In this document: positions 11,581 through 64,000 of the stretch, one piece after another | Position numbering within the stretch: the stretch's first letter is position 1 | Layout of the letters: each line of letters begins with the position of its first letter | From: Eledone cirrhosa | Taxonomy: Eukaryota | Reading direction: 5' to 3' | Length of the DNA stretch: 64,000 bases | Assembly: GCA_964016885.1 (NCBI GenBank) | Contig: OZ024740.1 | Span: 99,138,001 to 99,202,000, forward strand | Notes under the pieces: generated by a model | The model's input: the letters and a program-made list of their open reading frames with translations, nothing else | Told to the model about the DNA's origin: nothing | Database searches by the model: none | Made by a program: the position numbers and the translations under genes

Positions 11581-12085
11581 TATAATCAAGGTTTAGCAAA
11601 TAAGAAAAAGTTTAAAAATAAATGTTAAAAAATTAACTTACTTACTATTGGTCGTTCTGACTGCTGCTAGTTATAGTGGTAGCCGACTGACCTCTCTGCC
11701 TCCGCCTCTATCTTTACACTCGGCCCTTGAAAAAATTGATTCCACTGCATTTATTCTCATCTCGGGAACAATTTTAAATAGTGCAAGTTCGTAATATGAA
11801 TTCGGGAATTTTATATTCTTCGAATGAAAAGATCCTTCTGACGAGAGTTTTTCTTTGCAACGGATGCCGTATGGACTCCGTTCATTTTTGAGACTCGAAA
11901 CCGATTCGGTAAAGGTAACTATAGTAAGTAAGTTAATTTTTTAAAATTTGTTTTGAAACTTTTTCTTAATTGCTAAACCTTGATTATATATGTTCTGGCT
12001 CGTTAATTTATTAACCTGCCATTGAACCACATTGGCATATGGTTGGACAATACATGTGTCCCTTAGCGCCTTGTGCGTGTAGGGA
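11581..12085 (+). mobile_element. Diverged single copy of the 483-bp hammerhead element, with an inverted 3' segment at its left end
   Basis: Aligns by eye to the 53.3-54.9 kb unit. 11581-11648 is the reverse complement of ~11921-11988. Confidence 0.85.
11834..11915 (+). ncRNA. Type I hammerhead ribozyme
   Basis: CCUU-CUGACGA-GAGUUUU...GAGACUC-GAAA-CCGAUUCG-GUA-AAGG. Intact core and all three stems pair. Confidence 0.88.
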
Positions 12086-14914: not shown

Positions 14915-16546
14915 CTACCCCCTGACGCACCCCGTTACAATGGTGGCCTCAATCAAGTGCGGCGTCCATGACTTGACGACCATGCGAGTACCGTTGCATT
15001 GCTTTGGTGGACGCAAGTTCCTTATTAGCATAATGGGACAGCCAACCCTAAGCTTAATAATGTGAGGTGGGAGCCCTGGGGGCTCAAGGGAATTTAATAA
15101 CTCAACCGGATAATTAACGATATCGTCGGTGTCTGACGTCCGGTCGATAGATTTGAAGATGTGCTCTTTACCGGGAATCTTCTCAATCAGCTGCTCGTTA
15201 ATAAAATTAACCATGGTATTTTTCGGAGCAAGGATGGCTCTTTCACTGAGCCAATCGAGGTTTTTAAAGTTAGATGAGACATTAGGGAAAACTGCTTCCC
15301 AAAGATCAGAAGGGCGACTCACAATGTTGCACACGGAGTCGATTGCTATGCCGCCCTTGTCATCCGCGGGGACCTTGCCCTCACCAAATGCTAAAATGTT
15401 CTGAGCAAATGCTGCAGTAATGTTGTCACCATGCAAATGTGCACGCATATTTGTGCTCAGGTACAAACTCTTCACCTGGAACCACAATATGGGCGACTTA
15501 AGGCAGGCACGCAGTTCATCAGCTCTTGTCCCTTTGGGGATGACAGGCAGCGTTTGCCAAAAATCCCCTGATAGCAGAAGGGTTACGCCACCCATAGGAG
15601 CCGTAGAATCCCTAATGTCTTTCAGGTTCCTGTCCAATACATGAAGGGCACCCTTGTGTGCCATTGTGCTCTCATCCCAAACAATGAGGCACCATTTTTT
15701 GAGAACCAGAGCTTCATGTGAACTCTTGCTGATATTGCATGTTTGTGTCTCAGTTTTTACTAAATCCAAGGGGAGTTTAAAGGTTGAATGTGCTGTCCTG
15801 CCTCCCGGCAGAAAAGTAGCAGCGATCCCGGATGATGCAACGGCCAACGCAATATTTTTCTCCTGGCGAATCTTAGCGAGAGTCAATTTCGTTACAAAAG
15901 TGTTTCCGATGCCCCCAGTAGCATCGAAAAAGTAAATACCTCCAGTCTGGTGTTGGACCGCGTCAATGATAGTTAAATAGGCCAACCTCTGGTCCGACAG
16001 AAGTTTGGGCTCATTTTCCTCTAAGTATTGGGAAAGAGATTCGATGTCATATGCTGTTTCCCGCAGCAAATCCGGGGCCAACGTGTTTGCTTCCTCTCTG
16101 ACGGTTGACGGCAAGCCATAAGTCGCCAACTCACTCCCAGCCATGTCGAGGAGGGCGTCCTCGATATCAATGAGTACCCTGTTGTAGATAATGTCGCTGT
16201 AACCAACTTCCACTGAAGGATACTGCTGATGAGCCAGACGTAGGAACTCCTCAGACATGAAGTCTCTGTACTTGACCCATAAAGATTTGTGATCACGCAT
16301 TTCACACTTTTTAAGCCAAATGGCAAAGAGTTCCCATAAACCTTTAGGTGATTTAAACAAAGCACCCTCAGCTAAAGTAGAATCCAATTGCCAATCATCT
16401 TCTAAAAGACCACGCTTAAAGCAGGCTTCCCGGTACGTATCACATATTTCTACATCAACAGTTTTGAGGTCCTGAAAACTTTGTGGGCCTACAACTTCAT
16501 GCAGAAGAAGGCGGAGATGAAAGCACTCATGCTGACTTGGGGGCAC
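14915..16546 (-). pseudogene. Helitron PIF1-type SF1 helicase region (543 aa open, Walker A mutated)
   Basis: DATGGIGNTF replaces canonical DAPGGTGKTF. Other motifs are present (IVWDE, GDFxQTLPVI, LSTNMR, CNGTR; RxQLPV...FAMSINKSQGQT in 14639-14896 after a stop). Confidence 0.9.
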
Positions 16547-16867
16547 AGTGTAAACTCTTCCAAGAGAGCTGTCAAATTTGACACCAGGATGTCTTTCAAC
16601 AGCCTTACCTGACTTTCTTTACACCCAAGCGTTTTTCGACCATATAAAGTAGGATGGAACCTGGGGGTACACAATTGCTTGCGCAAATGTATCGAACTGG
16701 CAAAGTTTGAAGAAACCCGTCAGAGTGGTCTCTCTCAGATCAGCGGCCAACTTGGCGGCGGTTTGGCCCGTAAAGTAAACCCTTTGCCCATTTTCCAAAT
16801 ATACTGCAAGCTGTACGATGCCGGGGTGCCGTTGATATAGGGGTAAACCAAATACGCGCCAAAAAGC

Positions 16868-29665: not shown

Positions 29666-30499
<834 letters not shown>

Positions 30500-30561: not shown

Positions 30562-33512
30562 TGTAGGAGGTGAGTTTATTGTAGCACAATAAAGCAATGC
30601 AAATATCGGATAAGTAGCACTCCACAGTTTATAGGACTGGAGTATAAATAATATAAGATCAAAAGATGGTTAAAAGAGTTCCATGTATTTTTTTATGCTC
30701 ATTTCAAAAACAAATATCTTCATGGAATGACATTTGCGTTCTCATCAGATAAAATAGGGAGACATGATATGAAGCTTAAAAAGCACTTGCGAGCAGTGAA
30801 GTGTTAAATCAACATATGAAAAAGTAAGATGGATATATGAGATTGGGAAAAAAAGGAGGAGGGGGGAAGGAAAAGGTAAGGTAGGGGAAGAAAGAAAAAA
30901 GGATTACGAGGGAGCAGTATAAGAAGGTAGGATGAGAGAAGAGGAGAAATGAGTGAAAGAGAGAGGGAGATAGCCTTTAATACTGAGAAACACTTTCTCA
31001 CAGAGAAAATTAAAAAAACCGTTGTAAGATAATACATAATTTAAAAAAAATATTGAAATTAAAAGTTAATGAGGTTTATGAATGGTTATGTTTATGATTA
31101 AAGAAAAAGGAATTAAGAATAGTATTTATTTAAGGTTTATATATTGAAGAGTTTAATAATATGTACGAAAAGGAATTTTTTAATATGTATTATTAAAATA
31201 AAAATATTAAGGATATAAGGTGAATGAAGAAGAGATTAAATGAATTATGAACTTAGAGGAATTAGTTAGGGTTTAAGTTTGTTTTTATGTATTGTAATAT
31301 GAAAAAGTAAATAATAGGTTTAATACGAGCACGAAAGAAGAAAAATTTAAGGAAGAAAAAAAATAACGTCAAAAAAAAAATATATGTTTACAAAATTTAT
31401 TAATGGTAATATTAGTATATATTAAAAATATAGTTTGTATGGCCAAGAATATTAGGAAAATGCTATAGTGAGTAATAATATGAATTAAGAAGTAATTGAG
31501 AAGTAAAAGTTACAGATTAAATATTAAAAATTAAAAAAAGAAAAAGGGAAGAAAGGAAAAAAGGATAAAAAAGAAGAAAAATAGGGGACCGCTAACGACA
31601 TAGAATGAGTAAATTGTATAATATAATATACTGAAATAAGGTCGAAAGATGGGTATATTTGTAAAAGATATAAAAACGTTTGAGAAAAGAAGATTTTAAA
31701 CTAATTAGGTATTGAGATATTAGCTGTATACTTTATGGAAAGTTCTATGGGATTTATGCAAGTAGAGCGAAAATAATTCCGTACGTCTATTTATTATAGA
31801 ATTAAAATTAGAGATAATGGTAAATTTCTCGGCTAGGCAGAGATTACATATTCTGGATAGGGAAGAATTCTGGTAAGGAGAGGCGTTGCAAACCTTCCTC
31901 CAAGAGATGTTGTAATTAATATTTTTGTCTTTTAAGGACCATATGAGTTCTGAGAGTGCCGTGTTAGTTCTTTTAAGTTGGTATTTAAAAGACGAATTGG
32001 GATTATAAAATCTTGCTTTAAAGGAAGTGGAAGTGGAACCAAAATAGGTAAAAGAATTAGTACCATTTATAACCTTACATTCATACACTAAATTTTTCTC
32101 AAGACATTGGTTATTAAGAGGACATTTAGTTCTAACAGGGCAATTACAATTACGATTAGAGAAATTACCAGAGTTATTAACAAGTGACCTAGTATTATTT
32201 ATAGATTGGATTGGAGAAGTTATTTATGATAGGTACTATAGTTTCCTGATTTAGATTGGTGTTATGAACATTCGACAAAGTTACGTTTGACGTCGTATTT
32301 AAATTTACTGAATCTAGCCTAGAGTTAACATTGACATCGGTTTTACTATTGCTATTATTATGACGCTCAGTGTTGGATGGATATCATTTATTATTTAATA
32401 TTTTATTATTATGTTTAAAGATGTTGGAAGTGGTAAAATAAGAGAATTTGATTGTATGTTTGTTAAAGATCTTACTATAGATATGCGAGGGAGGGAAGCA
32501 TTTATCTAGGCCCTAAAAAATAGTTTAGGAATATTACTAGTAATAGATAGAGAAAAAGAAGCGTTGTACCAAATCATATTTTTGTATCTAGGTCTTTTAT
32601 TTAAGTTATTGGAATATTCATAACTAACTATTTTACTATAAGTCCTTCGGCGGTTGGTTTCTTTACTGTATTTAATTTTATCAGGATAACCGGCTTTGGA
32701 AAGCGCATTATTATAATAATTGGCATTAGCGTCGAAGATAACTTTATTAGATAATAGATTTGAGATTATTTTTTCAACATTACTTACTATAGCATTTTTA
32801 ACGTTAGTGGGGTGGTTAGATTTAAAATTAACATAATTTAGATTATCATTATCTTTATGGTAAGGGTAATATAGGCCGGTGTCAAGATTAAGGGATATAT
32901 CCAGGTAGGTAGCTGGTTTGACGTTGTTTTCAAATTCAATTTTTAGGTTAGTGTGCTTAATAGATCAAGTATATTATTCTTAATCATATTAAGGTTAACT
33001 AAGTTACAGTTTAAGACAGTAAAAAGGGCATCGTTACGTTAAGTTCCACCGCGAAGTTGAGGAATTTTCCGATTTAAAGAATTCAAAATAAAGATACCAA
33101 TCAAGTCCGTCAATTGCGCTGAATCCAACGAACCCATTGTGATAGAAAAATTGTTGGAAGTATCAGCTCTAGTCCAATATTCCTTGTTGAATTGCAGGAT
33201 AGTTTTTCTTGCGGTGAGAATGATGTAAAGTTCATCTGTGGTAATGTCAGAATATTGAAATGCGAAAGATAGAGCGTTGTTGAGGAGTGAAAGCGAAATA
33301 GAAGAATAGTAACTGGCAATGTCAAACTGAATAAATTTTTGTTTGTTTTTATTATTCAGGTCATTGAACCAGTTAATTACATCAGATGTACCAATCCATA
33401 AATTTAAGTTAGAAATAGAGCAATTAGAACGAACCTGTGGGATAATTCTATCCAAGATGGATTTACTAACAACCCCCAGATCTGATTTAGAGGGGCGATT
33501 AATCTAACAGGC
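30562..33512 (-). mobile_element. Penelope-like element, 5'-truncated relative of the 39789-45677 family
   Basis: RT piece 33039-33455 (IQFDIASYYSSI, ITMGS), CNC-x5-CPL knuckle and GIY-YIG 31720-32088 (YECKV...YFGSTSTSFKARF). pLTR with a hammerhead at 30686-30756 (-). Confidence 0.92.
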
Positions 33513-34091: not shown

Positions 34092-35485
34092 CAAGTGGTA
34101 ACACAACAGTTAGTTCATCATACCGAGAACAATTGTTTCACCTTAGCGGATCCTCAGCTCGTAATGGACATGGTTATACGGACAGCCGTATGAACGCGCA
34201 TGTGCAGAAACGGTCACTTCACGCAGGCAATATAAAACTGCGTGTGAGAGGTGTAAGGGAGATAACTGCGAAAGTCCGAAAGGTTCTAGTTGATAAGTAA
34301 ATTAGGACGTTGTTGTTGTTCAATCCGGAGCTTTGTAGTTATGTAAGAGGTGTTTCCAGACATGTGGGCAACGAGTGAAGAAATCAAATTTTGGTTTAGG
34401 CAATCGCTATTGCGTAATCTCTTTAGAATATTTATCCGTTCATCAATACATAGTCCACAAGACGGATTGCCCCTTGCGTATGGCTTGGACTTAGTGATGG
34501 CTTTCCATTGAATGGAGTAGTTTATACTTGAGTACTTGAGCGACCATACGTGGCTCGCGAGTTTCGAGGATGATCGTTTGTCCGGGTATCTAAAGGTCGA
34601 CTGATGGTTCAGGAAGCGTTCCTTAAATCGGCCATCCGCCATTCCCACATAGGATTTGACCTCCTGTGGTTGATTTGATCGGGTGGAAGTGACCACAGCT
34701 TCATAAATTACAGCGGGTGTCTTGCATTGCTCTTAAAGGGGTCAAACTTCAAGCTTTCTGCAAGAGCACCTTGGTGGTTTGTTGCTCTTAGGGCTGTTGG
34801 TGATGTGGGCCTTCATATTCTTAGCGCAGGAGTACCCTAGTTTTACCTTTGTGTCTGTTAAGGATGGAGTGGTATTTGTGACCTATGGGAAAGTGTCTAT
34901 CTAAGAGGGCTTAAGATTTTTCCTACATTAGTTTTAACGTTGGGTGAGAAGGGAGGAGAAAACCAGATAGTTTGTCTATTGTTGCGCTTTCTTTTCTTAC
35001 TGCTGTTGTTGTCAGTGGGAGAGTAAGTGATAGGTTGCGAGAAGCCGCTGTTAGCTAACGCGGTGTTATAGTAGCGTGCCGCTCTGTCAAAGATAGCCTT
35101 ATTAGAGGAGAGGTTGGAGATTCTAGTACTTATATTATTTAAGAAGTTTCTGAAAACAGTGGAGGGTGGCATGAGTCCTTGTGAATGAAATTGAGTTTTC
35201 GTTAAGCTTATGGAAGGGACAGTAAGTGTGTGTGCGAAAGTAATGTCTAAGAAATATACACTAGAGAGGTTAGTAGCTACTGTAATCCTAAGTCCTAACT
35301 CATTGATGGTAGAAGTTAAGTCTTTTTAAAACTGGTAGAGGTCGTGACCACTTTTATGGCTCGATATGGTCAGGCCATCCGCGGTATATTCCCGTGTGGA
35401 AGTCCGGGAATCTAGCACGTAATATGTCTACAATAAATAGGCCAACCAAGTCACATACGTCTGCACTGTCAAACGATCCCATGGA
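34092..35485 (-). mobile_element. 5'-truncated Penelope-like element (RT thumb plus GIY-YIG)
   Basis: 34897-35172 (ISTRISNLSS, IWFSPPFS) and 34286-34696 (YVGMADGRFKERFLNH, CGLCIDE). Confidence 0.9.
34124..34161 (-). ncRNA. Minimal type I hammerhead ribozyme (38 nt)
   Basis: CGAG-CUGAGGA-UCC-GCUAA-GGU-GAAAC-AAUU-GUU-CUCG. Palindromic stem III; lies in the PLE 3' UTR. Confidence 0.85.
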
Positions 35486-38463: not shown

Positions 38464-38535
38464 TGACGTACATGGGAGTTGAACCCACATCTTTGGTTAT
38501 CCGGACCACTGTGCTACCATTTACACCAACACATC
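38464..38535 (-). pseudogene. tRNA-like sequence (SINE head or tRNA pseudogene)
   Basis: Acceptor GATGTGT/GTACGTC, A box TGGTGTAAATGG, T arm GTGGG-TTCAACT-CCCAT. The anticodon loop CCGGATA is non-canonical. Confidence 0.7.
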
Positions 38536-39725: not shown

Positions 39726-39793
<68 letters not shown>

Positions 39794-41845
39794 ATCAAAA
39801 GATGGTTAAAAGAGTTCCATGTATTTTATTATGCGCATTTCAAAAACAAATATCATCATGCAATAACATTTGTGTTTTCATCAGATAAAATAGGAAGACA
39901 TGATATGAAGGTTAAAAACACTTGTGGATAGTGCAGTTTTAAATCAACATATGAAAAGTAGTTTTAGATTGATGTGTGATATCGGGGAAAATTTTTTTTG
40001 AGGGGGGTGGGGGTGGAAAGGATGAAAAAGAGGAGGAGATGAGAGTAAAAAGTGGAGGGAGAGGAGTATAATGAGGAAGGATGAGATAGGAGGAGAGATG
40101 GGTGATATATAGAGAGACAGATAGCTTTTATAACTGAGAAAAATACATTGTTTTACATAGAGAGGTAGAAAAACCGTTGGAAGATAATGAATAAATTAAA
40201 CGAATTTGAAAAGTAACGAAGAGAAAAATAATGTAAAGTTAAGGTTTGTATATTGAAGGGTTTAATATGTGCGATGAAAAGAAATTGTTAATATGTATTA
40301 AGAATAATATTTAAGGGTTTAATAATATGTGCGATGGAAAGAAAATGTTAATATGTATTAAGAATAATATTTAAGGGTTTAATAATATGTGCGATGGAAA
40401 GAAAATGTTGATATGTATTATTAAAAAAACAAAAGTAATGTAAGTAAGGATATATTGTGAAATGAGCATGAATAAGTTAGATGAAAGTGAGAAAAAAATA
40501 ATGAATAGAGGATGAATAATCTAGCGTAAAAAAAAAATGTTTATGTTTACGAAAGATTTTTTCAAGGTGATATGAAGTAAGAATATATTGTATTGTGTAA
40601 TAATTGTTTCTATGTTAGGCACAGTGAGAAAAGGTACCGATTAGGGGTTAGAAATTAAAAGAAAAAGAAAAGAAAAGGAAAAGGAAGAAAGGGAAGTGAT
40701 AAATAGGAGTGATATAGAATGAGTAACAAGTATAATAATGTATAATAAATGACTTTGAAATAAGGTAGAAAGATGGGTATATTTTTAAAGAAGTATATAT
40801 ATATATGTGCCTTTGAGAAAAGGATTCTAAATTGATAAAGTTTAGGATATTAGCTGTATACTTTATGGAAAGTTCTGTGGAATGTATGCAAGCAGAGAGA
40901 AAACAAGTCAGTGCGTCTATTTATTATAGAATCTAAATTAGCTATAATGGTAAATTTTTCATTTAGACAGAGATTGCAAGTCTTCGATAGAGAACTGTTT
41001 AAGTATGAAAAGCAGAAGAAACCTTTTTCCAAGAGATGTTATATTTAATATTTTTGTCTTTCAAGGACCATATGAGTTCTGACAGAGCCGTGTCTGTTCT
41101 TTTAAGTTGGTATTTAAAAGACGAATGATGATTATAAAGACGAGCTTTAAAGGAGGTGGAAGTGGAGCCAAAATAGGTGAAGGAATTGGTGTCAGTTATA
41201 ACTTTACGTTCGTAGATTAAGTTTTTATCAAGACAATAGTTGTTGAGAGGACATTTATTTTTAGCAGGGCAATTGCAATTGCTCATCTCACGATATATCC
41301 TTACTTACATTACTTTTGTTTTTTTTAATAATACATATCAACATTTTCTTTCCATCGCACATATTTTTAAACCTTTAAATATTATTCTTAATACATATTA
41401 ACATTTTCTTTCCATCGCACATATTATTAAACCCTTAAATATTATTCTTAATACATATTAACAATTTCTTTTCATCGCACATATTATTAAACCCTTCAAT
41501 ATACAAACCTTAACTTTACATTAATTTTCTCTTCGTTAATTTTCAAATTCTTTTAATTTATACATTATCTTCCAACGGTGTCTCAACCTCTCTATGTAAA
41601 ACAATATATTTTTCTCAGTTATAAAAGCTATCTCTCTCTCTCTATCACACATCTCTCCTCTTATCTCATCCTTCCTCATTATACACCTCCCCCTCCACTT
41701 TTTACTCTCACCTCCTCCTCTTTTTCACCCCCCACCCTCAAAAAAAAATTTTCCCCAATATCACATCAATCTAAAACTACTTATCATATGTTGATTTAAA
41801 ACTACACTATCCACAAGTGTTTTTAAGCTTCATATCATGTCTTCC

Positions 41846-41916
41846 TATTTTATCTGATGAAAACACAAATGTTATTGCATGATGATATTTGTTTTTGAAA
41901 TGCGCATAATAAAATA
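41846..41916 (+). ncRNA. Type I hammerhead in the pLTR (copies 45479-45549 on +, 39822-39892 on -, 30686-30756 on -)
   Basis: UAUUUUAU-CUGAUGA-AAACACAAAUGUUAUU...GAUGAUAUUUGUUUUU-GAAA-UGCGC-AUA-AUAAAAUA. Palindromic AUGCGCAU stem III. Confidence 0.88.
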
Positions 41917-42123
41917 CATGGAAATCTTTTAACCATCTTTTGATCTTATATATTATGTATACTCCAGTCCTACAAACTGTAGAGTCCTTCTTATCCGATA
42001 TCTGCATTGCTTTATTGTACTACAATAAAACTCACCTCCTACATTAACTTGCTCCTTAACGGTTGAGCGCTAACTCTCATATTGGATACCTTTTGATGGT
42101 CCTTTACCTTTTTCTTCTACAAC

Positions 42124-44511
42124 ATGGATTATTACAACATAACCAATTCAACTAAAGACATTCCTATACCTGGTAAATCTGAATTCACCAAACTTCTAAT
42201 TGAAAAAACTGACTCCTTTGTAAGAAGACTTAGATGGATAGCTTATTTCTATGACCAGCACCTAAAAGGGAACTTCTATACCATGCACCATAACTTCCTC
42301 GATCATCTATTTAATTCTAGAAGAAATCCTCCTTCCAACAAAAATCTAGTGCAATTCGAGGAAGAGTTAACAAATATTATAAAAAAATCTTAAATTCAAG
42401 AGATAGCCTTACAAAGGACAAGAGCACCTTGTAAATGTCAAAAACACAATTTCAAACCTAAATTCTTCAAAAAATGTTTTAGTCCTCTCTGACAAAACCA
42501 ATAATTTATATGGTATTTCCAAGGATAATTATAACTACCTTATCCTAAAGGAACTTAGGAAAAAATATCCTAAAACCAACCATGATAATTTAGAATCCAT
42601 AAACTTTGAAGCCTCTGAGATTATGTCAAAACTTGGCATCGGAAAAAAGACAGAACCATTCCCTACAAGAACTCCGAGGATAAATCTCAAGGATCACAAA
42701 AACAATTTTCGCACTGAACTACCTGTTAGATTAATCGCCCCCTCTAAATCAGATCTGGGGGTTGTTAGTAAAGCCATCTTGGATAGAATTATCCCACAGG
42801 TTCGTTCTAATTGCTCTTCTTTGAACTTAAATTTATGGTTTGGTACTTCTGAAGTGATTGGCTGGTTCAACAAATTGAATAATAAAAACAAACTAAAATT
42901 TGTTCAATTTGATATTGCCAGCTACTATTCTTCTATTTCGCCTTCACTTCTCAACAATGCTCTATCTTTCGCATTTAAATATTCTGACATCACCACTGAT
43001 GAACTTCACATCATTCTCACCGCACGTAAAACCATCCTTGAGTTCAACAATGAATATTGGACCCGAGCTGATACCTCTAACAACTTCGACATCACAATGG
43101 GAGCATCCGATTCATCCCAATTGACAGATTTAATTGGTATCTTTATTTTGAACTCTTTGAGTCGGAAAATTCCTCAACTTCGCGGTGGAATTTATCGTGG
43201 CGATGGACTCTTTACTATCTTAAATTGCAACATAGTTAACCTTAATATTATTAAGAACAATATACGTAATCTCTTTAACCAACATAACCTAAAAATTGAA
43301 TTTGATAACAGCATCAAACTAGCTAATTTCTTAATCTTGACACTGGCCTATATTACCCTTACCATAAAAACAATGAGAACATAAATTATGTTAATTTTAA
43401 ATCTAACCACCCTACTAATATTAGGAATGCTATAGTTAGTAATATTGGAAAAAGAATATCTAACCTATCTTCTAATAAAAACATCTTTGATGCTAACGCC
43501 AATTACTATAATAACGCGCTTTCTAAAGCCGGCTATCCTGATAAAATCAAATATAATAAAGAAACAAATTCTAGAAGATCTTACAGTAGAATAATTAATC
43601 ATGATCATTCCAATAACTTTAATAAACTACCTAGATACAAAAACATAATCTGGTATAATGCTCCTTTCTCCATCTCTATTAATAATAATATTCCTAAATT
43701 ATTCTTTAGTGCTTTAAATAAATGCTTCCCTCCCTCACATTTATTATAGTAAAATATTTAACAAACACACTATAAAATTTTCCTATTCGACATCCTCCAA
43801 CATTTCCAACATTATCTCTAAACACAACAATAAAATACTAAATGCTAAATCTCTTCCTTCCAATACTGAATATCATAATAATAGTAATAGTACTCCCGAC
43901 GTCATTGTAAACACTAGGTTAATTTCTGCAAACCCAAATATAACGTCAAACACAACTTCGCTAAATGTTCGTAATCCCATTCTAAATCAAGAAACTATAA
44001 TTCCTATAGCAAATAACTTGTCCAATCCAATTCCTTCTATAGATAACACAAGGTCACTCGTTAATAATCTCTCTAATCGCAATTGCAATTGCCCTGCTAA
44101 AAATAAATGTCCTCTCAACAACCATTGTCTTGATAAAAACTTAATCTACGAATGTAAAGTTATAACTGACACCAATTCCTTCACCTATTTTGGCTCCACT
44201 TCGACCTCCTTTAAAGCTCGTCTTTATAATCATCATTCGTCTTTTAAATACCAACTTAAAAGAACAGACACGGCTCTCTCAGAACTCATATGGTCCTTGA
44301 AAGACAAAAATATTAAATATAACATCTCTTGGAAAAAGGTTTCTTCTGCTTTTCATACTTAAACAGTTCTCTATCGAAGACTTGCAATCTCTGTCTAAAT
44401 GAAAAATTTACCATTATAGCTAATTTAGATTCTATAATAAATAGACGCACTGACTTGTTTTCTCTCTGCTTGCATAAATTCCACAGAACTTTCCATAAAG
44501 TATACAGCTAA
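42124..44511 (+). pseudogene. PLE RT/GIY-YIG ORF, frameshifted
   Basis: STKDIPIP...FVRRLRW N-terminus, LKDHK, VQFDIASYYSSI, FDITMGA, IYRGD instead of YRDD, CNCPAKNKCPL, LIYECKV...YFGST. Confidence 0.92.
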
Positions 44512-45672
44512 TATCCTAAACTTTATCAATTCAGAATCCTTTTCTCAAAGGCACACATATATATATATATACTTCTTTAAAAATATACCCATCTTTCTAC
44601 CTTATTTCAAAGTTATTTATTATACATTATATAATACGTGTTACTCATTCTATATCACTCCTATTTATCACTTCCCTTTCTTCCTTTTCCTTTTCTTTTC
44701 TTTTTCTTTTAATTTCTAACCCCTAATCTGTACCTTTTCTCAATGTGCCTAACATAGAAACAATTATTACACAATACAATATATTCTTACTTCATATCAC
44801 CTTGAAATAATCCTTCGTAAACATAAACATTTTTTTTTACGTTAGATTATACATCCTCTATTCATTATTTTTTTGTCACTTTCATCTACCTTATTCATGC
44901 TCATCTCACAATATATCCTTACTTACATTACTTTTGTTTTTTTTAATAATACATACCAACATTTTCTTTCCATCGCACATATTATTAAACCCTTAAATAT
45001 TATTCTTAATAGATATTAACTTTTTCTTTCCATCGCACATATTATTAAACCCTTAAATATTATTCTTAATACATATTAACAATTTCTTTTCATCGCACAT
45101 ATTATTAAACCCTTCAATATACAAACCTTAACTTTACATTATTTTTCTCTTCGTTAATTTTCAAATTCTTTTAATTTATACATTATCTTCCAACGGTGTC
45201 TCAACCTCTCTATGTAAAACAATATATTTTTCTCAGTTATAAAAGCTATCTCTCTCTCTCTATCACCCATCTCTCCTCCTATCTCATCCTTCCTCATTAT
45301 ACTCCTCCCCCTCCACTTTTTACTCTCATCTCCTCCTCTTTTTCATCCTTTCCAACCTCCTCCCCCCCTCAAAAAAAAATGTTCACCAATATCACACATC
45401 AATCTAAAACTACTTTTCATATGTTGATTTAAAACTGCACTATCCACAAGTGTTTTTAACCTTCATATCATGTCTTCCTATTTTATCTGATGAAAACACA
45501 AATGTTATTGTATGATGATATTTGTTTTTGAAATGCGCATAATAAAATACATGGAACTCTTTTAACCATCTTTTGATCTTATATATTATGTATACTCCAG
45601 TCCTACAAACTGTAGAGTGCTTCTTATCCGATATCTGCATTGCTTTATTGTACTAGAATAAAACTCACCTCC

Positions 45673-45731
<59 letters not shown>

Positions 45732-45839: not shown

Positions 45840-48240
45840 TAAAAATATATATATATATATTTATTTATAAGAGAGTATTGAAGTTTGCTTGAAGCATTGT
45901 GGAATAATAAGGTAAATTTCTTTAAGTCGTTTGGAAGCCTCGACAATGCAGATGGGTAAATCTCCAGGTAACAAGATCCGGTGGTGGAGAGAGAGATGTA
46001 AGTGGGTGTACGTTGAGATGCGTGGCGTGTATAAGACTGTAACGTGTAGAGGAATGAAGCAAAGAGCATAAAGGATAAAAATAAAAATAACAACACGAGA
46101 AAGTGTTACCTTGGGAGAGATTTAATTGTCCCTATATATTTCGAATTCACATCCATCAACTGGGTTTTTTTTCGGGGGGGGGGGGGAGAAGGTTGTCTGT
46201 CGGAAAGGTGCGAAACGTGTCGTCCGCTATTCGTTTATTTGAATATCTGAGGCATTCAGCAGAGCGCGCGTGTGCGTGAAATGGGGTCGGCCAGGCAGAG
46301 GTCAGCGGCCGAAGTAGTTCTTTCAATTGTGGGAGTGGGGTGGCGCTAGCTGTCAGTCCATTCTCTGCCTGTTTGGTGAATGTTACTGTGTGTGTGTGTG
46401 TGTGTGCGCGTGTGTTGTTGTCTCGCTTGAGTGTGTGAGTGTGTGCGTGTGTTGTTGCCTGTTCCTCTGTATTGGCAGTGTAGTATGTTCGTATGGTAGA
46501 ATGCTACTGCGTGTGTTGCTGCATCGTTTGTTAACTTAAACAAACCACCTCATTTCGCTTCTCTGGGATCGGTTGTTTAATTGTGGCCCTAGGCGTTTGA
46601 TCCAAAGTGCTTCCTTGATACGTAACGTGCCGACGTTTCTTTCTGTCGCTAGAATTGTGACAATGGACCTTCCGTCTTTGTTTCCGCATTTGGCTATGTC
46701 TTTTCGGAAAGACGAGGCCCTGGTTTTAGTGTGTTCCTTGACCCGGATGTGCAACGGCCGGATTGTGCTACCTATATAGTATTGGTTGCACTTGTTACAT
46801 TCTATCTTATACACGACGTATGTCCGTAGGCAACAGTTCGCATGGCGCATCGGGCAGTCTCTGAGTGAGCACCGACAGTTGATTTCCCGGGTTTCCTGGA
46901 GAGGCATCTTTGCAGGGAGAGGCCCGAGTGGGCCAGGTGGATGTCGAGGCCCTCCCTCCGTATAGCCTTGCGGATAGCGTTGGTGGTATTCTCGCCCAGG
47001 TGTGGCATTTTAAGAAAGCACTTGCAATGGGTGCCTCTCTGTCTCTTGTATCTGGTGTCTCCTACTCTGTCTGTGATTGAGGTAGGGTACCCGTTCGTCT
47101 CCAGCACCTCGAGGAATCGCTTGGTATGAGGGACACCACTCGCGGGATCGCTGCATCTGTTTTTGATTCGCACGATCTCGTTCGTGATGTATCCTCTTTT
47201 GGCACTGTTAGGGAGGGCTGACTTGTAGTGAACGAATAGGTCCCTGCAGGTTGCCTTTCGGTAGATGTTGCAGTGGATCCCTCCTTGTTCCGTGATGTTG
47301 ATTCGGAAGTCGAGAAGGGTAAGTGACCCGTGGTCGTTGGGGTGTTCAACACTGAAGTCAATGTTCTCGTCCGTGTTGTTGAACGTCTCATAGATTCTGT
47401 TCGCCATGTCTTGGGAAGATGTGAGGATGAGGATATCGTCCACGTACCTCGAGAAAAAGGCGACGGCGTTGGGTTGGCAGGCGTTGAGTGCCTTGCGCTC
47501 GAGGCTGTCCATGTAATAGATCGCTAGCACACCCGACAGGCTTGATCCCATGGGCAGTGCCGAGGTTTGTTGGTATGTTTGGTCAAGGAATCCGAAGTAG
47601 GTGTTGTCGACGACGATGGATAGGAGTTGGTGGATGTCAGTGGTGGTGTGCCCAAAGCAGTGTAGGTCGGTGGATTGGACGCGTTCCATCAGTATATTGA
47701 CGGCCGGGAGCGCCGGGACCGAGGTGTAGAAAGCGACTACATCAAGGCTGAAGGCATATTTGTTATTCTTTCTGGTGTCGGGATCCATATGATGCAGGCG
47801 CTTCAACACCTCCCCGGAGCTGTTAACGTGTCCCGGCAAGGTGTCTAAGATGGCCGTTGACCTCTGCATGACCGACCCCATTTCACGCGCACGCGCGCTC
47901 TGCTGAATACCTCAGATATTCAAAACAACGAACAGCGGAGGACACGTTTCGCACCTTTCCGACAGAAAACATCCCCCCCCCCCGGAAAGAAACCCCAGTT
48001 GATGGATGTGAATCCGAAATATATAGGGACAATTAAATCTCTCCCAAGGTAAATCTTTCTCGTGTTGTTATTTTTATTTTATCCTTTACGCTCTTTGTTT
48101 CATTCCTCTACACGTTACAGTCTTATACACGCCACGCATCTCAACGTACACCCACTTACGTCTCTCTCTCCACCACCGGATCTTGTTACCATCTGCATTG
48201 TCGAGGCTTCCAAACGACTTAAAGGAATATATTTATTTAG
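45840..48240 (-). mobile_element. Penelope/Poseidon-type PLE, 5'-truncated, with an inverted 3' UTR copy
   Basis: RT 46802-47850 (SLDVVAFYTSVP, LPMGSSLS, RYVDDIL, LLDF, YRK), frameshift near 46885 into GIY-YIG (VVYKIECNKCNQYYIGST, EALWI...PQLN). 47852-48225 is the reverse complement of ~45920-46310. Confidence 0.93.
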
Positions 48241-52600: not shown

Positions 52601-53210
52601 ATGGTAGCTGCCAACTCGTTTTCGAGTACGGCCACTACTTTATATCCATGTAGGAGAACCCTTACCAATGTGCTGAACGAGTGTGACTTTTTAGTCCAGC
52701 CAGCAACTTGAAAACTCTGGTACAAACACTACACTTGTGACAATTACTGACACATAGTGCTGGGCCCATGGTACCATGTGATGACAAGTGCAGAGAGATC
52801 TCCAGATATAAAGCAATGCCTGTGCCGTGAAGCTTTTATAGTGAGCAAAGGCACTGCACAAACCAGTCCCACTCTCTTAACCAAGATGATATTTACCAAA
52901 AAGAAGAACAAGTCAACATCATTGGATACCATCAGGGTTGCAGGTGTTATATCAGAGTTTTCCTTATCCTAGAATTCTGCCTTGACAAAGGCTAAGGGGT
53001 CATCTCACCCAGTGAATTTGGATGGCCATTGACTCTTAAGAGCTCTTTTGCCCTGTGACAGATTTTGTTTTTAGTCCTGCAGGATGTCCAAAGTCACCCT
53101 CCTCACCGAGAAACCTTGGTGGGGTTGCAAGTTTAGTCGCCAATGACCCGACCATGAGACAGGTTGTACTGGGATATATGTTACCAGTAGCATCAACTGG
53201 TGACCTGACA
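52601..53210 (-). mobile_element. ~610-bp non-coding repeat resembling an RTE 5' UTR (copies 61544-62136 and 62154-62763)
   Basis: Three copies with shared endpoints. The minus-strand motif AAGGCAGAATTCTAGGAxAAGGAAAACTCTGA resembles GGCAACACGTCTAGGAGAGCTAACACTCC in the RTE 5' UTR at ~48865. Confidence 0.6.
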
Positions 53211-53272: not shown

Positions 53273-54896
53273 TATGAAATACGTCCCTTCACGCACAAGG
53301 CGCCAAGGTACGCATGTATTGTCCAACCAAGTGCCAATGTGGTTCAATGGCGGGTTAATAAATTAACGAGCCAGAACAAATATAAACAAGGTTTAGTAAA
53401 TAATGAAAAAGTTTCAAAATAAATTTTAAAAAATTGACTTTACCTACTATAGTTACCTTTACCGATCGGTTTCGAATCCCAAAAATAAAACGGAGACCAT
53501 ACGGCCTTCGTTGCAAAGAGAGATTCTCGGCAGAAGGTTCTTTTCATTCAAAGAATATAAAATTCCTGAATTTAAATCACAGACTAGCGCTATCAAAAAC
53601 TGTTCCTGGGATGAGAGTGGATGATGTAGAACAGGTTTATCAAGGGCCGTAGCAAAGATAGAGGCAAAAGGAGGTAGGTCAAACTAGACACCGCTGTTGC
53701 CAGCAGCAGTCGGAATGACCCGGTTTGTTCTCAACGTTAGTGGAGGTAGTAGTAATATGAAATACGTCCCTTCACGCACAAGGCGCCAAGGTACGCATGT
53801 ATTGTCCAACCAAGTGCCAATGTGGTTCAATGGCGGGTTAATAAATCAACGAGCCAGAACAAATATAAACAAGGTTTAGTAAATAATGAAAAAGTTTCAA
53901 AATAAATTTTAAAAAGTTGACTTTACCTACTATAGTTACCTTTACCGATCGGTTTCGAATCCCAAAAATAAAACGGAGACCATACGGCCTTCGTTGCAAA
54001 GAGAGATTCTCGTCAGAAGGTTCTTTTCATTCAAAGAATATAAAATTCCTGAATTTAAATCACAGACTAGCGCTATCAAAAACTGTTCCTGGGATGAGAG
54101 TGGATGATGTAGAACAGGTTTATCAAGGGCCGTAGCGAAGATAGAGGCAAAAGGAGGTAGGTCAAACTAGCCACCGCTGTTGCCAGCAGCAGTCGGAATG
54201 ACCCGGTTTAGTGATTTAGTCTGTGATTTAAATTCAGGAATTTTATATTCTTTGAATGAAAAGAACCTTCTGACGAGAATCTCTCTTTGCAACGAAGGCC
54301 GTATGGTCTCCGTTTTATTTTTGGGATTCGAAACCGATCGGTAAAGGTAACTATAGTAGGTAAAGTCAATTTTTTAAAATTTATTTTGAAACTTTTTCAT
54401 TATTTACTAAACCTTGTTTATATTTGTTCTGGCTCGTTAATTTATTAACCCGCCATTAAACCACATTGGCACTTGGTTGGACAATACATGCGTACCTTGG
54501 CGCCTTGTGCGTGAAGGGACGTATTTCATATTACTACTACCTCCACTAACGTTGAGAACAAACCGGGTCATTCCGACTGCTGCTGGCAACAGCGGTGGCT
54601 AGTTTGACCTACCTCCTTTTGCCTCTATCTTTGCTACGGCCCTTGATAAACCTGTTCTACATCATCCACTCTCATCCCAGGAACAGTTTTTGATAGCGCT
54701 AGTCTGTGATTTAAATTCAGGAATTTTATATTCTTTGAATGAAAAGAACCTTCTGACGAGAATCTCTCTTTGCAACGAAGGCCGTATGGTCTCCGTTTTA
54801 TTTTTGGGATTCGAAACCGATCGGTAAAGGTAACTATAGTAGGTAAAGTCAATTTTTTAAAATTTATTTTGAAACTTTTTCATTATTTACTAAACC

Positions 54897-54903
<7 letters not shown>
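53273..54903. repeat. 483-bp hammerhead-bearing tandem plus inverted array (retrozyme-like or pLTR-only PLE derivative)
   Basis: Units 53273-53755 and 53756-54209, then ~1.4 inverted units at 54217-54903. Near-identical and flanked by microsatellite. Confidence 0.92.
54265..54348 (+). ncRNA. Type I hammerhead (copies 54748-54831 on +, 53938-54021 on -, and 53455-53538 on - with core mutation A6C)
   Basis: ACCUU-CUGACGA-GAAUCUC...GGGAUUC-GAAA-CCGAUCG-GUA-AAGGU. Confidence 0.92.
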
Positions 54904-54982
<79 letters not shown>

Positions 54983-58714: not shown

Positions 58715-60363
58715 TTGATGTACCAGGTCATGAAAGTAACACAAAGTTATAGCACAGTTGATTAGGGACCGGGTGAAAATAGATGAGATGCAATTTGGGT
58801 TTGTAGCAGGAAAAGCACCACTGATGCCCTCTTCCTTGTGAGGCAGTTACAGGAAAAGTCCCTAGCTAAAAGTAAGCTGCTCTACCTGGCATTTGTCGAT
58901 CTGGAGAAAGCCTTTGACAGAGTTCCCCGTGCTATAATCTGGTGGGCTTTTAGAAAACTAGGAGTAGATGAAGGCTTGTGAAAGCTGTACAAGCTATGTA
59001 TAGGGAACAGTGAGCAAAGTTAGGATTAGCAATGACTATAGCGAGGAATTTAGCATACAGGTCGGTGTCCACCAGGGCTCTGTTCTTAGCCCTCTCCCAT
59101 TCATCATAGTTTTGCAGGCAATAATAGAGGAGTTTAAGACGGGATGTCCATGGGAACTCGTGTATGCAGATGATCTTACATTTATAGCTGAATTTATGGT
59201 AGAAATAGAGAAGAAATTCAGAACATGGAAGCAGAGGCTAGAAAGAAAGAGTCTCAAAGTCAATCTGACAAACACTAAGGTCCTTTTAAGTAGACGAGAA
59301 AACAGAACCCAGATCCCCTCAGGGAAATAGTCTTGCTCAGTATGTAGGAAAGGTGTAGGTAGGAAGTCCATCCTCTGCCCTAAATGCAAACAATGGATAC
59401 CCAACAGATGTAGTGGGATGTCAGGAAGCTTAACTAAGAATGTAGGCTTCACATGTAGCAGCTGCGCTGGAACAGCATGCCACAAACAGCCACGGGAAAC
59501 AAGTACCACCAATCTCTGGGAAGGCTCTGTAGAAACAGTAGACAGCTTCTGCTACCTAGGTGACTGAATTAGCAGCGGAGGTGGGTGTTCAGAAAGTACA
59601 ATAACTAGTGTAAGAACGGGTTGGAAGAAGTTCAGGAAGTTACTGCCACTGCTAGCAGCAAAAGGCTTTTTCCTCAAAATTAAAGGCAGACTATATGATG
59701 CATGTATACGAACAGCAATGTTACATGTTAGTGAGACCTGGGCGCTGTCTGTAGATTAGAAAGAAACAAAGCCTGCATGCTCCGATGGACGTGTAATAGT
59801 AATATATGCAAACGGCAAAGCATAAACAAACTGAGAGAGAGACTGAGCTTAAGAGAAATCAAATGCTGTGTGCAGGAGAGGATGTTGCATTGGTATGGAC
59901 ATGTGATGCATATGAAGGATGACAGCTGCATAAAAAGGTGCAAAGCACTAGAGGTTGATGGAAGTCGTGGAGTGGGGAGACCCAAGAAGACCTGGGATGA
60001 GGTGATAAAAGCCCACCTTACACAATTACACCTCTCAAATGTGGTGACAAACAGCCATGACCTCTGGCATCACGCAGTAATACAGAAGACCCGACCCCCA
60101 TGGGTACAAGACGAATCTGAAGCATATAGAACATATGCCCCACCCCCTCCCACTGAAAAGTGGTCATCGAGGTGCCATGGCAAAATAGCACTCACTGTAA
60201 ATGAGGTTGGTGTTAGGAAGGGCATCCAGCTGTAGAAATCAAGCCAGAATCAGTTCCCATATGAGCAAGGCATGGTCAGCCAACCGGACACTGCCCACAA
60301 CAGGACAACCCTTCTAACCCATGCTAGTGAGGAAGAACGGACGTAAGACGGTGATGATGATGA
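58715..60363 (+). mobile_element. 5'-truncated RTE LINE (RT to 3' tail)
   Basis: QFGFV, AFVDLEKAFDRVP, GVHQGSVLSP, VYADDL, Cys finger, WYGHV, RGVGRPKKTW. Ends in a SINE-like module and (GAT)n. Confidence 0.92.
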
Positions 60364-60366
60364 TAC

Positions 60367-60399
<33 letters not shown>

Positions 60400-60429
60400 C
60401 ATATATATACATATATATATATACATATA

Positions 60430-60465
<36 letters not shown>

Positions 60466-60538
60466 TATATATATATAAATGTAAGTATGTATGTATACGT
60501 ACATACATATATGTATACAGACGTACAGTAGCATGCAT

Positions 60539-60637
<99 letters not shown>

Positions 60638-60789
60638 CAGGTACACATACATATATGTACGTATCAGTTTAGCGGACGCTTATTATAACGCCCGCTTTGT
60701 TCGTTTGTAAACAAACTGAACAGCCTGAATTTATGCCGTACGGTGTTAAGGCAACCACGTCACCTTTTTGTTCAACACTGACACAGGAA

Positions 60790-60830
60790 CGATGTACTAG
60801 TTTCAAGCTTGTTAGCTATCATCAGCACCG
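60790..60830 (-). ncRNA. Minimal type I hammerhead, 41 nt (copies 61253-61293, 62968-63008, 63489-63529 on -, 63814-63854 on +)
   Basis: CGGUG-CUGAYGA-UAGCU-AACA-AGCUU-GAAAC-UA-GUA-CAUCG. Palindromic ACUAGU stem III. Confidence 0.9.
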
Positions 60831-60905
60831 TATACCCTTCTGCCAGATGGTTGAACGTTCGAAAGTATATACTTTCCTTATGAAAATTAACGGCTGAGCA
60901 ACCTA

Positions 60906-60913
60906 ATTTGCAT
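60906..60913. promoter_or_regulatory. Octamer motif ATTTGCAT in each direct unit (e.g. also 61369-61376)
   Basis: Exact match about 75 nt upstream of the ribozyme on its sense strand. Function not shown. Confidence 0.35.
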
Positions 60914-61064
60914 ATCGAGTGAGTTCGGTCAGGCGTACCGAGAACGATAAGTTGTAATAAAATGAAAACGAAAATTTCATTTCTCACTCTTAGTACGGCA
61001 CTTACTTAAATGTAAGTATGTATGTATACGTACATATATATATGTATACAGACGTACAGTAGCA

Positions 61065-61100
<36 letters not shown>

Positions 61101-62777
61101 CAGGTACACGTACATATATGTACGTATCAGTTTAGCGGACGCTTATTATAACGCCCGCTTTGTTCGTTTGTAAACAAACTGAACAGCCTGAATTTATGCC
61201 GTACGGTGTTAAGGCAACCACGTCACCTTTTTGTTCAACACTGACACAGGAACGATGTACTAGTTTCAAGCTTGTTAGCTATCGTCAGCACCGTATACCC
61301 TTCTGCCAGATGGTTGACCGTTCGAAAGTATATACTTTCCTTATGAAAATTAACGGCTGAGCAGCCTAATTTGCATATCGAGTGAGTTCGGTCAGGCGTA
61401 CCGAGACCGATAAGTTGTAATAAAATGAAAACGAAAATTTCATTTCTCACTCTTAGAACGGCACTTACTTAAATGTAAGTATGTATGTATACGTACATAC
61501 ATATATGTATACAGACGTACAGTAGCATGCATATATATATATATGGTGGCTGCCAACTCGTTTTCGAGTACGGCCACTACTTTATATCCATGTAGGAGAA
61601 CCCCTACCGATGCGCTGAACAAGTGTGACTTTTTAGTCCAGCCAGCGATTTGAAAACTCTGGTACAAACACTACACTTGTGACAATTATTGACACATAGT
61701 GCTGGGCCCATGGTACCATGTGACGACAAGTGTAAAGAGATCTCCAGATATAAAGCAATGCCTGTGCCGTGAAACTTTTATAGTGAGCAAAGTCACTGCA
61801 CAAAGCCAGTCCCACTCTCTTAACCAAGATGATATTTACCAAAAAGAAGAACAAGTCAACATCATTGGATACCATCAGGGCTGCAGGTGTTATATCAGAG
61901 TTTTCCTTCTCCTAGTATTCTGCCTTGACAAAGGCTAAGGGTCATCTCTCCCGGTGATTTTGGATGGCCACTGACTCTTAAGAGCTCCTATGCCCTTTGA
62001 CAGGTTTTGTTTTTAGTCCTGCAGGATGTCCAAAGTCACCCTCCTCACCAAGAAACCTTGGTGGGGTTGCAAGTTTAGTCGCCAACGACCCGACCATGGG
62101 ACAGGTTGTACTGGGATACATGTTACCAGTAGCACCATACATACAAGCATACATGGTGGCTGCCAACTTGTTTTCGAGTACGGCCACTACTTTATATCCA
62201 TGTAGGAGAACCCCTACGGATGCGCTGAACGAGTGTGACTTTTTAGTTCAGCCAGCGATTTGAAAACTCTGGTACAAACACTACACTTGTGACAATCATT
62301 GACACATAGTGCTGGGCCCATGGTACCATGTGACGACAAGTGCAGAGAGATCTCCAGATATAAAGCCATGCCCGTGCCGTGAAGCTTTTATAGTGAGCAA
62401 AGGCACTTCACAAAGCCAGTCCCACTCTCTTAACCAAGATGATATTTACCAAAAAGAAGAACAAGTCAACATCATTGGATACCATCAGAGTTGCAGGTGT
62501 TATATCAGAGTTTTCCTTCTCCTAGAATTCTGCCTTGAGAAAGGCTAAGGGGTCATCTCTCCCTGTGATTTTGGATGGCCATTGAAACTTAAGAGCTCCT
62601 TTGCCCTTTGACAGGTTTTGTTTTTAGTACTGCAGGATCTCCAAAGTCACCCTCCTCACCAAGAAACCTTGGTAGGGTTGCCAGTTTAGTCGCCAACGAC
62701 CCGGCCATGATACAGGTTGTACTGGGATACATGTTACCAGTAGCACCAACTGGTGACCTGACATAATATATATATAT

Positions 62778-62811
<34 letters not shown>

Positions 62812-63242
62812 CATACAGGTACACATACATATATGTACGTATCAGTTTAGCGGACGCTTATTATAACGCCCGCTTTGTTCGTTTGTAAACAAACTGAACA
62901 GCCTGAATTTATGCCGTACGGTGTTAAGGCAACCACGTCACCTTTTTGTTCAACACTGACACAGGAACGATGTACTTGTTTCAAGCTTGTTAGCTATCGT
63001 CAGCACCGTATACCCTTCTGCCAGATGGTTGAACGTTCGAAAGTATATACTTTCCTTATGAAAATTAACGGCTGAGCAGCCTAATTTGCATATCGAGTGA
63101 GTTCGGTCAGGCGTACCGAGAACGATAAGTTGTAATAAAATGAAAATGAAAATTTCATTTCTCACTCTTAGTACGGCACTTACTTAAATGTAAGTATGTA
63201 TGTATACGTACATACATATATGTATACAGACGTACAGTAGCA

Positions 63243-63336
<94 letters not shown>

Positions 63337-64000
63337 CAGGTACACATACATATATGTACGTATCAGTTTAGCGGACGCTTATTATAACGCCCGCTATGTT
63401 CGTTTGTAAACAAACTGAACAGCCTGAATTTATGCCGTACGGTGTTAAGGCAACCACGTCACCTTTTTGTTCAACACTGACACAGGAACGATGTACTAGT
63501 TTCAAGCTTGTTAGCTATCATCAGCACCGTATACCCTTCTGCCAGATGGTTGAACGTTCGAAAGTATATACTTTCCTTATGAAAATTGACGGCTGAGCAG
63601 CCTAATTTGCATATCGAGTGAGTTCGGTCAGGCGTACCGAGAACGATAAGTTGTAATAAAATGAAAACGAAAATTTCATTTCGGTACGCCGAAAATTTCA
63701 TTTCGGCTCGCCTGACCGAACTCACTCGATACGCAAATTAGGCTGCTCAGCCGTTAATTTTCATAAGGAAAGTATATACTTTCGAACGTTCAACCATCTG
63801 GCAGAAGGGTATACGGTGCTGATGATAGCTAACAAGCTTGAAACTAGTACATCGTTCCTGTGTCAGTGTTGAACAAAAAGGTGACGTGGTTGCCTTAACA
63901 CCGTACGACATAAATTCAGGCTGTTCAGTTTGTTTACAAACGAACAAAGCGGGCGTTATAATAAGCGTCCGCTAAACTGATACGTACATATATGTATGTG

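Follow-up and report, generated by a model that had tools for sequence, protein, structure and literature searches.

A dispersed hammerhead ribozyme repeat of Eledone cirrhosa, carrying and inserting into (TA)n, is probably a non-autonomous Penelope-like element

The stretch of Eledone cirrhosa DNA analysed here, 64,000 nt of contig OZ024740.1 (GenBank assembly GCA_964016885.1, positions 99,138,001 to 99,202,000; hereafter the window), ends in a repeat array that runs from position 60477 to the window end and carries five type I hammerhead ribozymes: the first four lie on the minus strand, the last on the plus. We propose, at a probability of roughly 80%, that the array belongs to a dispersed, non-coding hammerhead repeat that is a non-autonomous Penelope-like element (PLE), in other words a retrozyme of the non-LTR kind (LTR, long terminal repeat), for which a circular monomer RNA serves as template and a Penelope-type enzyme acts in trans. 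The argument rests chiefly on two-armed, head-to-head insertions with a tail at one end; this is the inversion-plus-tail signature of PLEs, and hence the repeat is best read as one of their non-autonomous members. A first-pass annotation of the window had described the array as a hammerhead satellite that spreads microsatellites, and had missed both the inverted two-arm structure and the tail, the features that identify the mechanism.

Insertion ends were mapped at 128 non-redundant loci, comprising 47 ribozyme-core loci taken in genome order, 23 best BLAST hits, and 28 and 30 loci from two further searches. Outer ends fall at two fixed sites of the unit, near position 375 (short) and near position 315 (tailed), 60 nt apart and away from the TA tract; the genome-wide copies ending at the TA tract that the first-pass annotation named as its own refutation are thus not what we find. 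In both arms the sense 3' end points outward. One short end is combined with one tailed end in 64 of 67 parsed two-armed insertions (one of the 64, L070, is a segmental duplicate), for which a model of independent ends gives P 3e-17 (64/66). Four further two-armed loci (L068, L148, L160 and L200) were left as single ends by the parser and stand outside the 64, showing a short end plus a tail by eye. The side of the tail is immaterial (37 versus 27 for left and right), and the rule also holds in a subfamily 78% identical to the main one; unpaired ends comprise 38 tailed, 27 short and one other. Inside the insertions, 90 head-to-head junctions lie at scattered positions, giving the inverted copy with variable truncation that is a PLE feature, with overlaps of 1-8 nt at 39 and filler at 21. 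Junctions seemed at first to be in excess at the TA tract; this was set aside, as by our own arithmetic their number matches the share of the unit that the tract occupies.

This arrangement has close counterparts in published work. PLE inversion with a tail at one end is described in PMC8557442 and PMC3846280, and in the in vitro system of PMC11167929 the tail is the stretch between two reverse-transcription start sites, both strands being nicked and extended at AT-rich DNA by an enzyme predicted to be a dimer. The two terminal sites (window 60947 and 61007) are predicted to be unpaired A/C/U-rich stretches, with a common short motif just inside the element; they recall the AC-rich reverse-transcription start of PMC11167929.

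The first-pass annotation was right that TA runs are where the element is found. Of 200 outer ends, 192 lie directly next to 6 nt or more of TA and 171 next to 10 nt or more, while the baseline from 20 arbitrary 10-kb stretches is 5.3% of positions; this is in keeping with the AT-rich or microsatellite target of PLEs. A target-site duplication, another PLE feature, would be hidden by such a target. It was also right that (TA)n belongs to the unit, since conserved unit sequence flanks the tract on both sides and 147 of 149 unit spacers hold at least 12 nt of pure TA. The internal tract ranges from 5 to 251 nt (median 39), and its lengths of 27 and 85 nt set the hammerhead spacings of 463 and 521, both as first reported. 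The 33 and 62 nt beside the tract alternate purine and pyrimidine at 0.91 and 0.87, compared with about 0.5 elsewhere, and the whole TA hairpin is therefore likely to be a captured, partly decayed target site.

Carried tracts do serve as new landing sites, as the first-pass annotation had suggested. Foreign inserts lie inside 12 of 390 internal tracts, and at L162 a complete second insertion of the family lies nested in a tract of the first, from which it differs in haplotype and beside which it has a short and a tailed end of its own. By rough arithmetic, one self-insertion in 17 kb of tract roughly equals what the rate per TA base across the genome would predict, which would make the carried tracts ordinary targets. 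Among the foreign sequences, an element of about 610 nt, sometimes in tandem, recurs inside the family's TA tracts: it occupies 61545-62760 in the window (third copy at 52603-53195), occurs also at L110, L172, L187, L195 and L021, and forms part of four of the 12 foreign inserts; it also lies once within the tail of another PLE. A hammerhead motif scan and a BLAST comparison of the window found no hammerhead in it.

The family is large and dispersed. Its exact 26-nt ribozyme core has 13,684 matches genome-wide on both strands and none for the reversed control, so the five hammerheads are not chance. Copies lie on many contigs at 97-99% identity. The first 100 core matches correspond to about 47 loci over 50.6 Mb, and scaling from these 47 fetched loci gives some 6,000 insertions and 17,000 internal TA tracts, both lower bounds because only exact cores were counted. 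Insertions mostly hold 1-8 units; the longest arrays, L168 and L169, have at least 14 units each, their two ends not both having been reached, and L170 likewise has at least 14. The build of a satellite, long arrays at few loci grown in place, was not found, and that label does not hold. The subfamily about 78% identical has a period of about 423 nt and short TA tracts, and at L142 the subfamily apparently changes within one array. Contigs under three other species labels cover 22-30 of 30 unit bins.

The five hammerheads claimed by the first-pass annotation were all recovered, each 43 nt long and not 41, helix I being 6 bp and extended further through internal loops. Helix II has 4 bp with a tetraloop and a U-U at its base, while helix III is a single A-U pair closed by a palindromic tetraloop that is intact in 107 of 113 copies from 28 loci not chosen by ribozyme. 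Minimal type I hammerheads, the PLE type, have a reduced helix II and lack the typical helix sizes. The 4-bp helix II with its tetraloop and the extended helix I do not fit the minimal class to which the ribozymes had been assigned. The contrast between minimal and other type I hammerheads is stated in PMC7229834. Rfam returned no hammerhead at gathering score, giving weak HH9 matches (E 3.1) on three of the five copies; other matches of the E-value scan were discarded as TA-driven microRNA noise.

It had further been claimed that N7 is the only core position to vary among the copies. This stands for the catalytic core of the five; the third copy (62967), though, has an unmentioned change in loop III that breaks the palindrome, and as evidence the observation suffers from the five copies being 98% identical to one another. 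A broader test used 28 loci picked independently of the ribozyme: none of 11 core columns has a variant in at least three loci, compared with 113 of 298 columns outside (P 0.008, related copies not being independent). Changes private to single copies after insertion occur at about equal rates in the core (13 of 2199 site-copies) and the rest (417 of 52940), as is expected of dead-on-arrival copies, and by hand count a core change other than at N7 occurs in 10 of the first 100 matches of a further match set. The core mutating as freely as the rest of the unit, which had been offered as a refutation, is thus seen in private changes and not in inherited variation. An earlier column test (3 of 43 versus 76 of 298) was biased, 47 of its 69 input loci having been picked by exact core, and was replaced. 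The other N7 letter occurs in 58 of 286 copies; CpG decay was rejected as its cause, the mirror change at G8 being present in only one copy. Both letters are mixed within one array at two of 62 multi-copy loci, of which the array in the window is one.

Cleavage may be assisted by dimerization. Helix III alone is predicted at +6.0 kcal/mol and the intermolecular duplex of the palindrome at -4.8, making dimer-assisted cleavage through the palindromic loop III plausible. Axolotl ribozymes with the same type of helix III cleave better as dimers (PMC7229834); eight of nine predicted Xenopus elements did not cleave (10.64898/2026.07.22.740005).

Strong structure is predicted for the unit RNA, with support from covariation. 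The cut-to-cut monomer has a predicted fold of z -8.8 in which (UA)n caps a long hairpin, a position that would leave tract length free. Without the TA hairpin, the ribozyme strand gives z -6.1 and the opposite strand -2.1, and natural monomers from seven of the eight loci tried, folded as circles, give -6.6 to -13.1. These monomers measure 420-506 nt (seven loci), and 521 nt in the window. In 20 young units, nine of 76 consensus pairs change on both sides, a count inflated by relatedness, and a long-range helix that begins the tail covaries (G-C in 13, A-U in 7).

The two arms of an insertion mostly share a template. Across 36 insertions with comparable arms, arm-arm divergence has a median of 2.0%, compared with 5.1% between loci, and 17 private alleles are shared by both arms (shuffle mean 0.58, maximum 3). 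Arm inner ends are scattered and are not enriched at the ribozyme cut site (6 of 180 versus 8.7 expected), so the template would be a ligated circle or an uncut multimer rather than a cut linear monomer. Two tracts differ by no more than 2 nt in length in 22.5% of pairs taken within a locus and in 8.3% of pairs between loci, and a single length persists across both arms at L077 (5/5) and L166 (7/7).

Taken together, these observations suggest the following scheme. A tandem copy would be transcribed and cut by its hammerheads, probably dimerized by way of their palindromic loop III, and the resulting 420-520-nt monomer would be ligated to a circle. By prediction and covariation, this RNA would take a conserved branched fold with (UA)n at the tip of its long hairpin. 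A PLE reverse transcriptase (RT)/GIY-YIG protein, the putative enzyme, would then nick both strands of a genomic TA run, the target being the one observed. Each nick would prime reverse transcription at one of the two observed RNA sites 60 nt apart, with one start site per arm and mostly on the same template, and the cDNA would extend from a fraction of a unit to many units, passing straight through the ribozyme cut site. The cDNA ends would join head to head by the microhomology or filler seen at the junctions, and failure of one arm would leave a single-armed insertion. Each insertion adds about three TA tracts within an existing TA locus, where they later take inserts from other elements and from the family itself. 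A fuller version can be put forward only tentatively: a circular ribozyme RNA, with a captured TA target as its length-free hairpin tip, would be rolling-circle copied by a dimeric Penelope enzyme whose subunits must use different start sites, one per arm, even where the arms come from different RNAs, and TA loci would grow by nesting, with about three new targets per insertion.

It is possible, at a lower probability, that the same PLE-driven element instead has as its template a read-through transcript of a tandem array, linear and uncut, the ribozyme being kept for another step or hitch-hiking. Arms run through the cut site, as they would on either template; uncut RNA is the main in vitro substrate in PMC11167929, so a linear multimer may serve; and the mixed N7 letters of the array in the window are joined by 49 alleles common to only some units of an array. 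Against this, tract length drifts before point changes accumulate: at L168 tracts drift over 52-62 though no unit-private substitution is present, so that one length over 5-7 units and both arms fits repeated copying of a circle better. The core is also kept in inherited variation, and the whole monomer is structured. We therefore consider the tract lengths to favour the circle moderately.

A less probable alternative, put forward for Adineta Penelope elements in PMC3846280, is self-priming, in which fold-back on a single template, and not two primed nicks, makes the inverted arm. The arms do share a haplotype, and palindromic junction overlaps exceed 8 nt at 8 of 90 junctions. Both arms, however, stop within 5 nt of the same position at only 8 of the 90, either arm can be the longer (the tailed one in 31 of 62), and the fixed 60-nt offset is not given by fold-back alone. 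Furthermore, two insertions pair the repeat's tailed arm with the short arm of another family.

More doubtful still is the original proposal of a satellite that carries (TA)n microsatellites to new genomic places, which in respect of new places is largely refuted. A tract in nearly every unit, reused as a target, speaks for it; the arrays are short and dispersed, however, their ends lie almost always in TA already, and the family's estimated 17,000 tracts (a lower bound) make up less than 1% of the roughly 2.3 million TA tracts estimated for the genome from 151 in 200 kb, a very uneven sample of 0-25 per 10 kb. Finally, assembly or long-read fold-back artefacts can practically be set aside, since, although TA-rich inverted repeats are hard to assemble and the window array's own junction was not seen in reads, they would not give the fixed 375/315 asymmetry, a nested insertion in which two haplotypes occur, arms bearing mutations of their own, or the opposite-strand joints present in raw reads of three other samples (restriction-biased restriction-site-associated DNA sequencing, whose reads are cut at restriction sites and whose read ends are uninformative on element ends).

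Several observations weigh against the proposal of a PLE-driven retrozyme copied from a circle. The one-tail rule has three exceptions (short/short at L183, tail/tail in the rearranged locus L174, and one unclassed), and the 60-nt tail exceeds the published 30-40 nt. Unshared private alleles between arms number 224 to the 17 shared, as expected if they arose after insertion. The mixed N7 letters in the window's array are unexplained by a single circle without later change, and in PMC11167929 cleavage is not needed for in vitro insertion, uncut RNA being the main template. That the outer TA predates insertion is seen directly at L162 alone and is presumed elsewhere. Lastly, no autonomous element sharing unit sequence was found, a narrow search giving no matches to a motif derived from the loose ends on contigs of other species.

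A second abundant PLE family (L102-L131; L115:1-1520) has an 80-nt tail, exists mostly as hairpin-like insertions of about 200 nt in TA, and has 6,611 exact short ends abutting TA; read by eye, the other arm carries tail sequence in 27 of 30 cases and a second short end in none. A long copy ends in a GIY-YIG-type open reading frame (ORF), which over 91 aa has 48% identity with one of the window's PLE-like ORFs. Pfam did not recognize the GIY-YIG pieces. Thus a GIY-YIG-coding PLE family in the same genome has the same target and one-tail rule as the ribozyme repeat. Clade names are our presumption from motifs and the 48%, 91-aa comparison, and the Neptune-like and RTE-like labels given to neighbours are one from motifs, with no tree. 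In two mixed-arm insertions (L063:2858 and L096:2320) the repeat's tailed arm is joined directly to the untailed end of the GIY-YIG family. They are consistent with a single insertion built from two RNAs, which would reveal the driver; deletion between neighbours could also give two such cases. A search with the junctions as queries found no mixed-arm insertion beyond the query, only further non-coding copies. At L030:828, L090:1631, L093, L013:1950 and L075:1976, inner ends are joined directly or through short TA to other elements, either truncated RTE-like elements or PLE ORF pieces, perhaps by template switch or deletion.

The repeat resembles animal non-LTR retrozymes (PMC7229834; 10.64898/2026.07.22.740005) in its short, non-coding tandem units with one type I hammerhead each, its strong predicted structure and self-paired monomer, its thousands of copies and the selection on its core. 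The one-pair helix III with palindromic tetraloop occurs in axolotl HHR_Amex1, and the basal U-U of helix II in HHR_Amex2. Unit size is given as 150-450 bp in PMC7229834 and 51-972 bp in the preprint 10.64898/2026.07.22.740005; monomers here lie above the former range and inside the latter. Unlike those retrozymes, the repeat has a length-variable (TA)n in its unit, inserts into TA runs and forms two inverted arms with a tail; the words 'microsatellite' and 'inverted' are absent from the main text of PMC7229834. With the endonuclease-positive PLEs Neptune, Poseidon and Naiad (PMC8557442, PMC3846280, PMC11167929) it shares partial tandems, a head-to-head inverted copy with variable inner truncation, a tail at one end, a microsatellite target and a hammerhead in the repeat; it differs in its lack of an ORF, its longer tail, its whole-unit multimers of up to at least 14 and the absence of an identified autonomous relative. 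Non-autonomous Chlamys elements such as MRC1 (PMC8557442) are likewise multicopy head-to-tail PLEs of a microsatellite-biased clade, but their 3' ends resemble those of autonomous families, and the clade targets (CA)n or (C)n, mostly without canonical hammerheads.

Newt satellite 2 and the hammerhead 'satellites' of schistosomes and crickets also consist of tandem units whose weak helix III is thought to need dimers; copies here are, by contrast, dispersed insertions with PLE ends. Element class, tail, inversion and TA targeting are already in print. In the literature searched, from which most subscription papers were absent, we found no report of mixed arms or twin priming in PLEs, and nothing matching on microsatellite carriage or seeding or on rolling-circle copying. 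Nor did we find a match for a TA hairpin of free length carried in the unit, for a one-tail rule that a retrozyme follows almost strictly, or for nested self-insertion, though supplements of the preprint may hold TA-containing families.

The array itself (Table 1) shows the same architecture. It extends beyond the window, the element ending at window-equivalent 64208 in the adjoining stretch: past 64000 the right arm contains a 79-nt TA tract and then the tailed end. The whole element, which is locus L031, thus has its left outer end at unit position 375 and its right at 315. No ORF of at least 150 aa lies within 60477-64000, and the RT and GIY-YIG ORF of an autonomous PLE is therefore absent from the part of the element inside the window.

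Table 1. Features of the hammerhead array and its flank in the window
Feature	Position	Strand
Flanking TA-type tract, putative target site; adjoins the (GAT)n end of a decayed RT-coding element	60363..60475	
Left arm, outer end at the 'short' site, unit position 375; putative first reverse-transcription start, no tail	60476..60537	-
Internal (TA)n tract, 95 nt	60538..60632	
Unit 1 without its TA tract, 436 nt; basis for numbering unit positions 1-436	60633..61068	-
Type I hammerhead 1, predicted cut after 60795	60789..60831	-
60-nt PLE-type tail stretch, internal copy; unit positions 315-374, between both terminal sites	60947..61006	-
Internal (TA)n tract, 27 nt; predicted tip of long RNA hairpin	61069..61095	
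Unit 2, with hammerhead 61252-61294	61096..61531	-
Unrelated 1.28-kb element, two copies of about 610 nt, 95% alike; later insertion into an internal TA tract	61545..62760	
Unit 3, with hammerhead 62967-63009, palindrome of loop III broken	62811..63246	-
Internal (TA)n tract, 85 nt	63247..63331	
Unit 4, truncated (positions 1-351), with hammerhead 63488-63530; inner end of left arm	63332..63682	-
Head-to-head junction filler, 20 nt	63683..63702	
Right arm, inverted, running from unit position 309 to 12 within the window; carries hammerhead 63813-63855	63703..64000	+

Elsewhere in the window, another hammerhead family (53275-54906) also consists of two arms head to head in a TA run, with a long helix II, outer ends about 105 nt apart in the unit and an 83% relative at 11650-12085; no BLAST similarity links the two families, which the first-pass annotation had called unrelated. 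A decayed PLE at 39776-45677 retains pieces of RT-like and GIY-YIG-like ORFs (42407-44362). Its hammerheads are at 41846, at 45479 and, in inverted orientation, at 39822, and short two-armed copies related to it lie near 29700-30400. Broken PLE-like ORFs are found at 6560-8754, 31720-33503 and 46536-47911 (with an RVT_1 match for 46805-47911). Further features are a helicase-like ORF at 14915-16618, a hammerhead-like motif at 34124-34161 and a tRNA-like match (Rfam RF00005) at 38464-38535, likely to form the head of a short repeat.

The case for a PLE origin of animal retrozymes has so far rested on co-occurrence and sequence similarity; the preprint 10.64898/2026.07.22.740005 draws the link from co-occurrence and similarity of pseudo-LTRs (pLTRs), not from insertion ends. 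In the family described here, thousands of young copies of a retrozyme directly display the insertion ends of PLEs. The family does not explain the microsatellite load of the genome; its carried TA tract may show how a target sequence becomes a tolerated part of a structured RNA and feeds nested insertion. The origin of tandem and inverted PLE structures and of their microsatellite bias is named as open in PMC8557442. Here, a tail that is 'often at one end' becomes a near-strict rule, as a model of a dimer with two start sites predicts, and the family would thus be useful as a large natural test set for the PLE mechanism.

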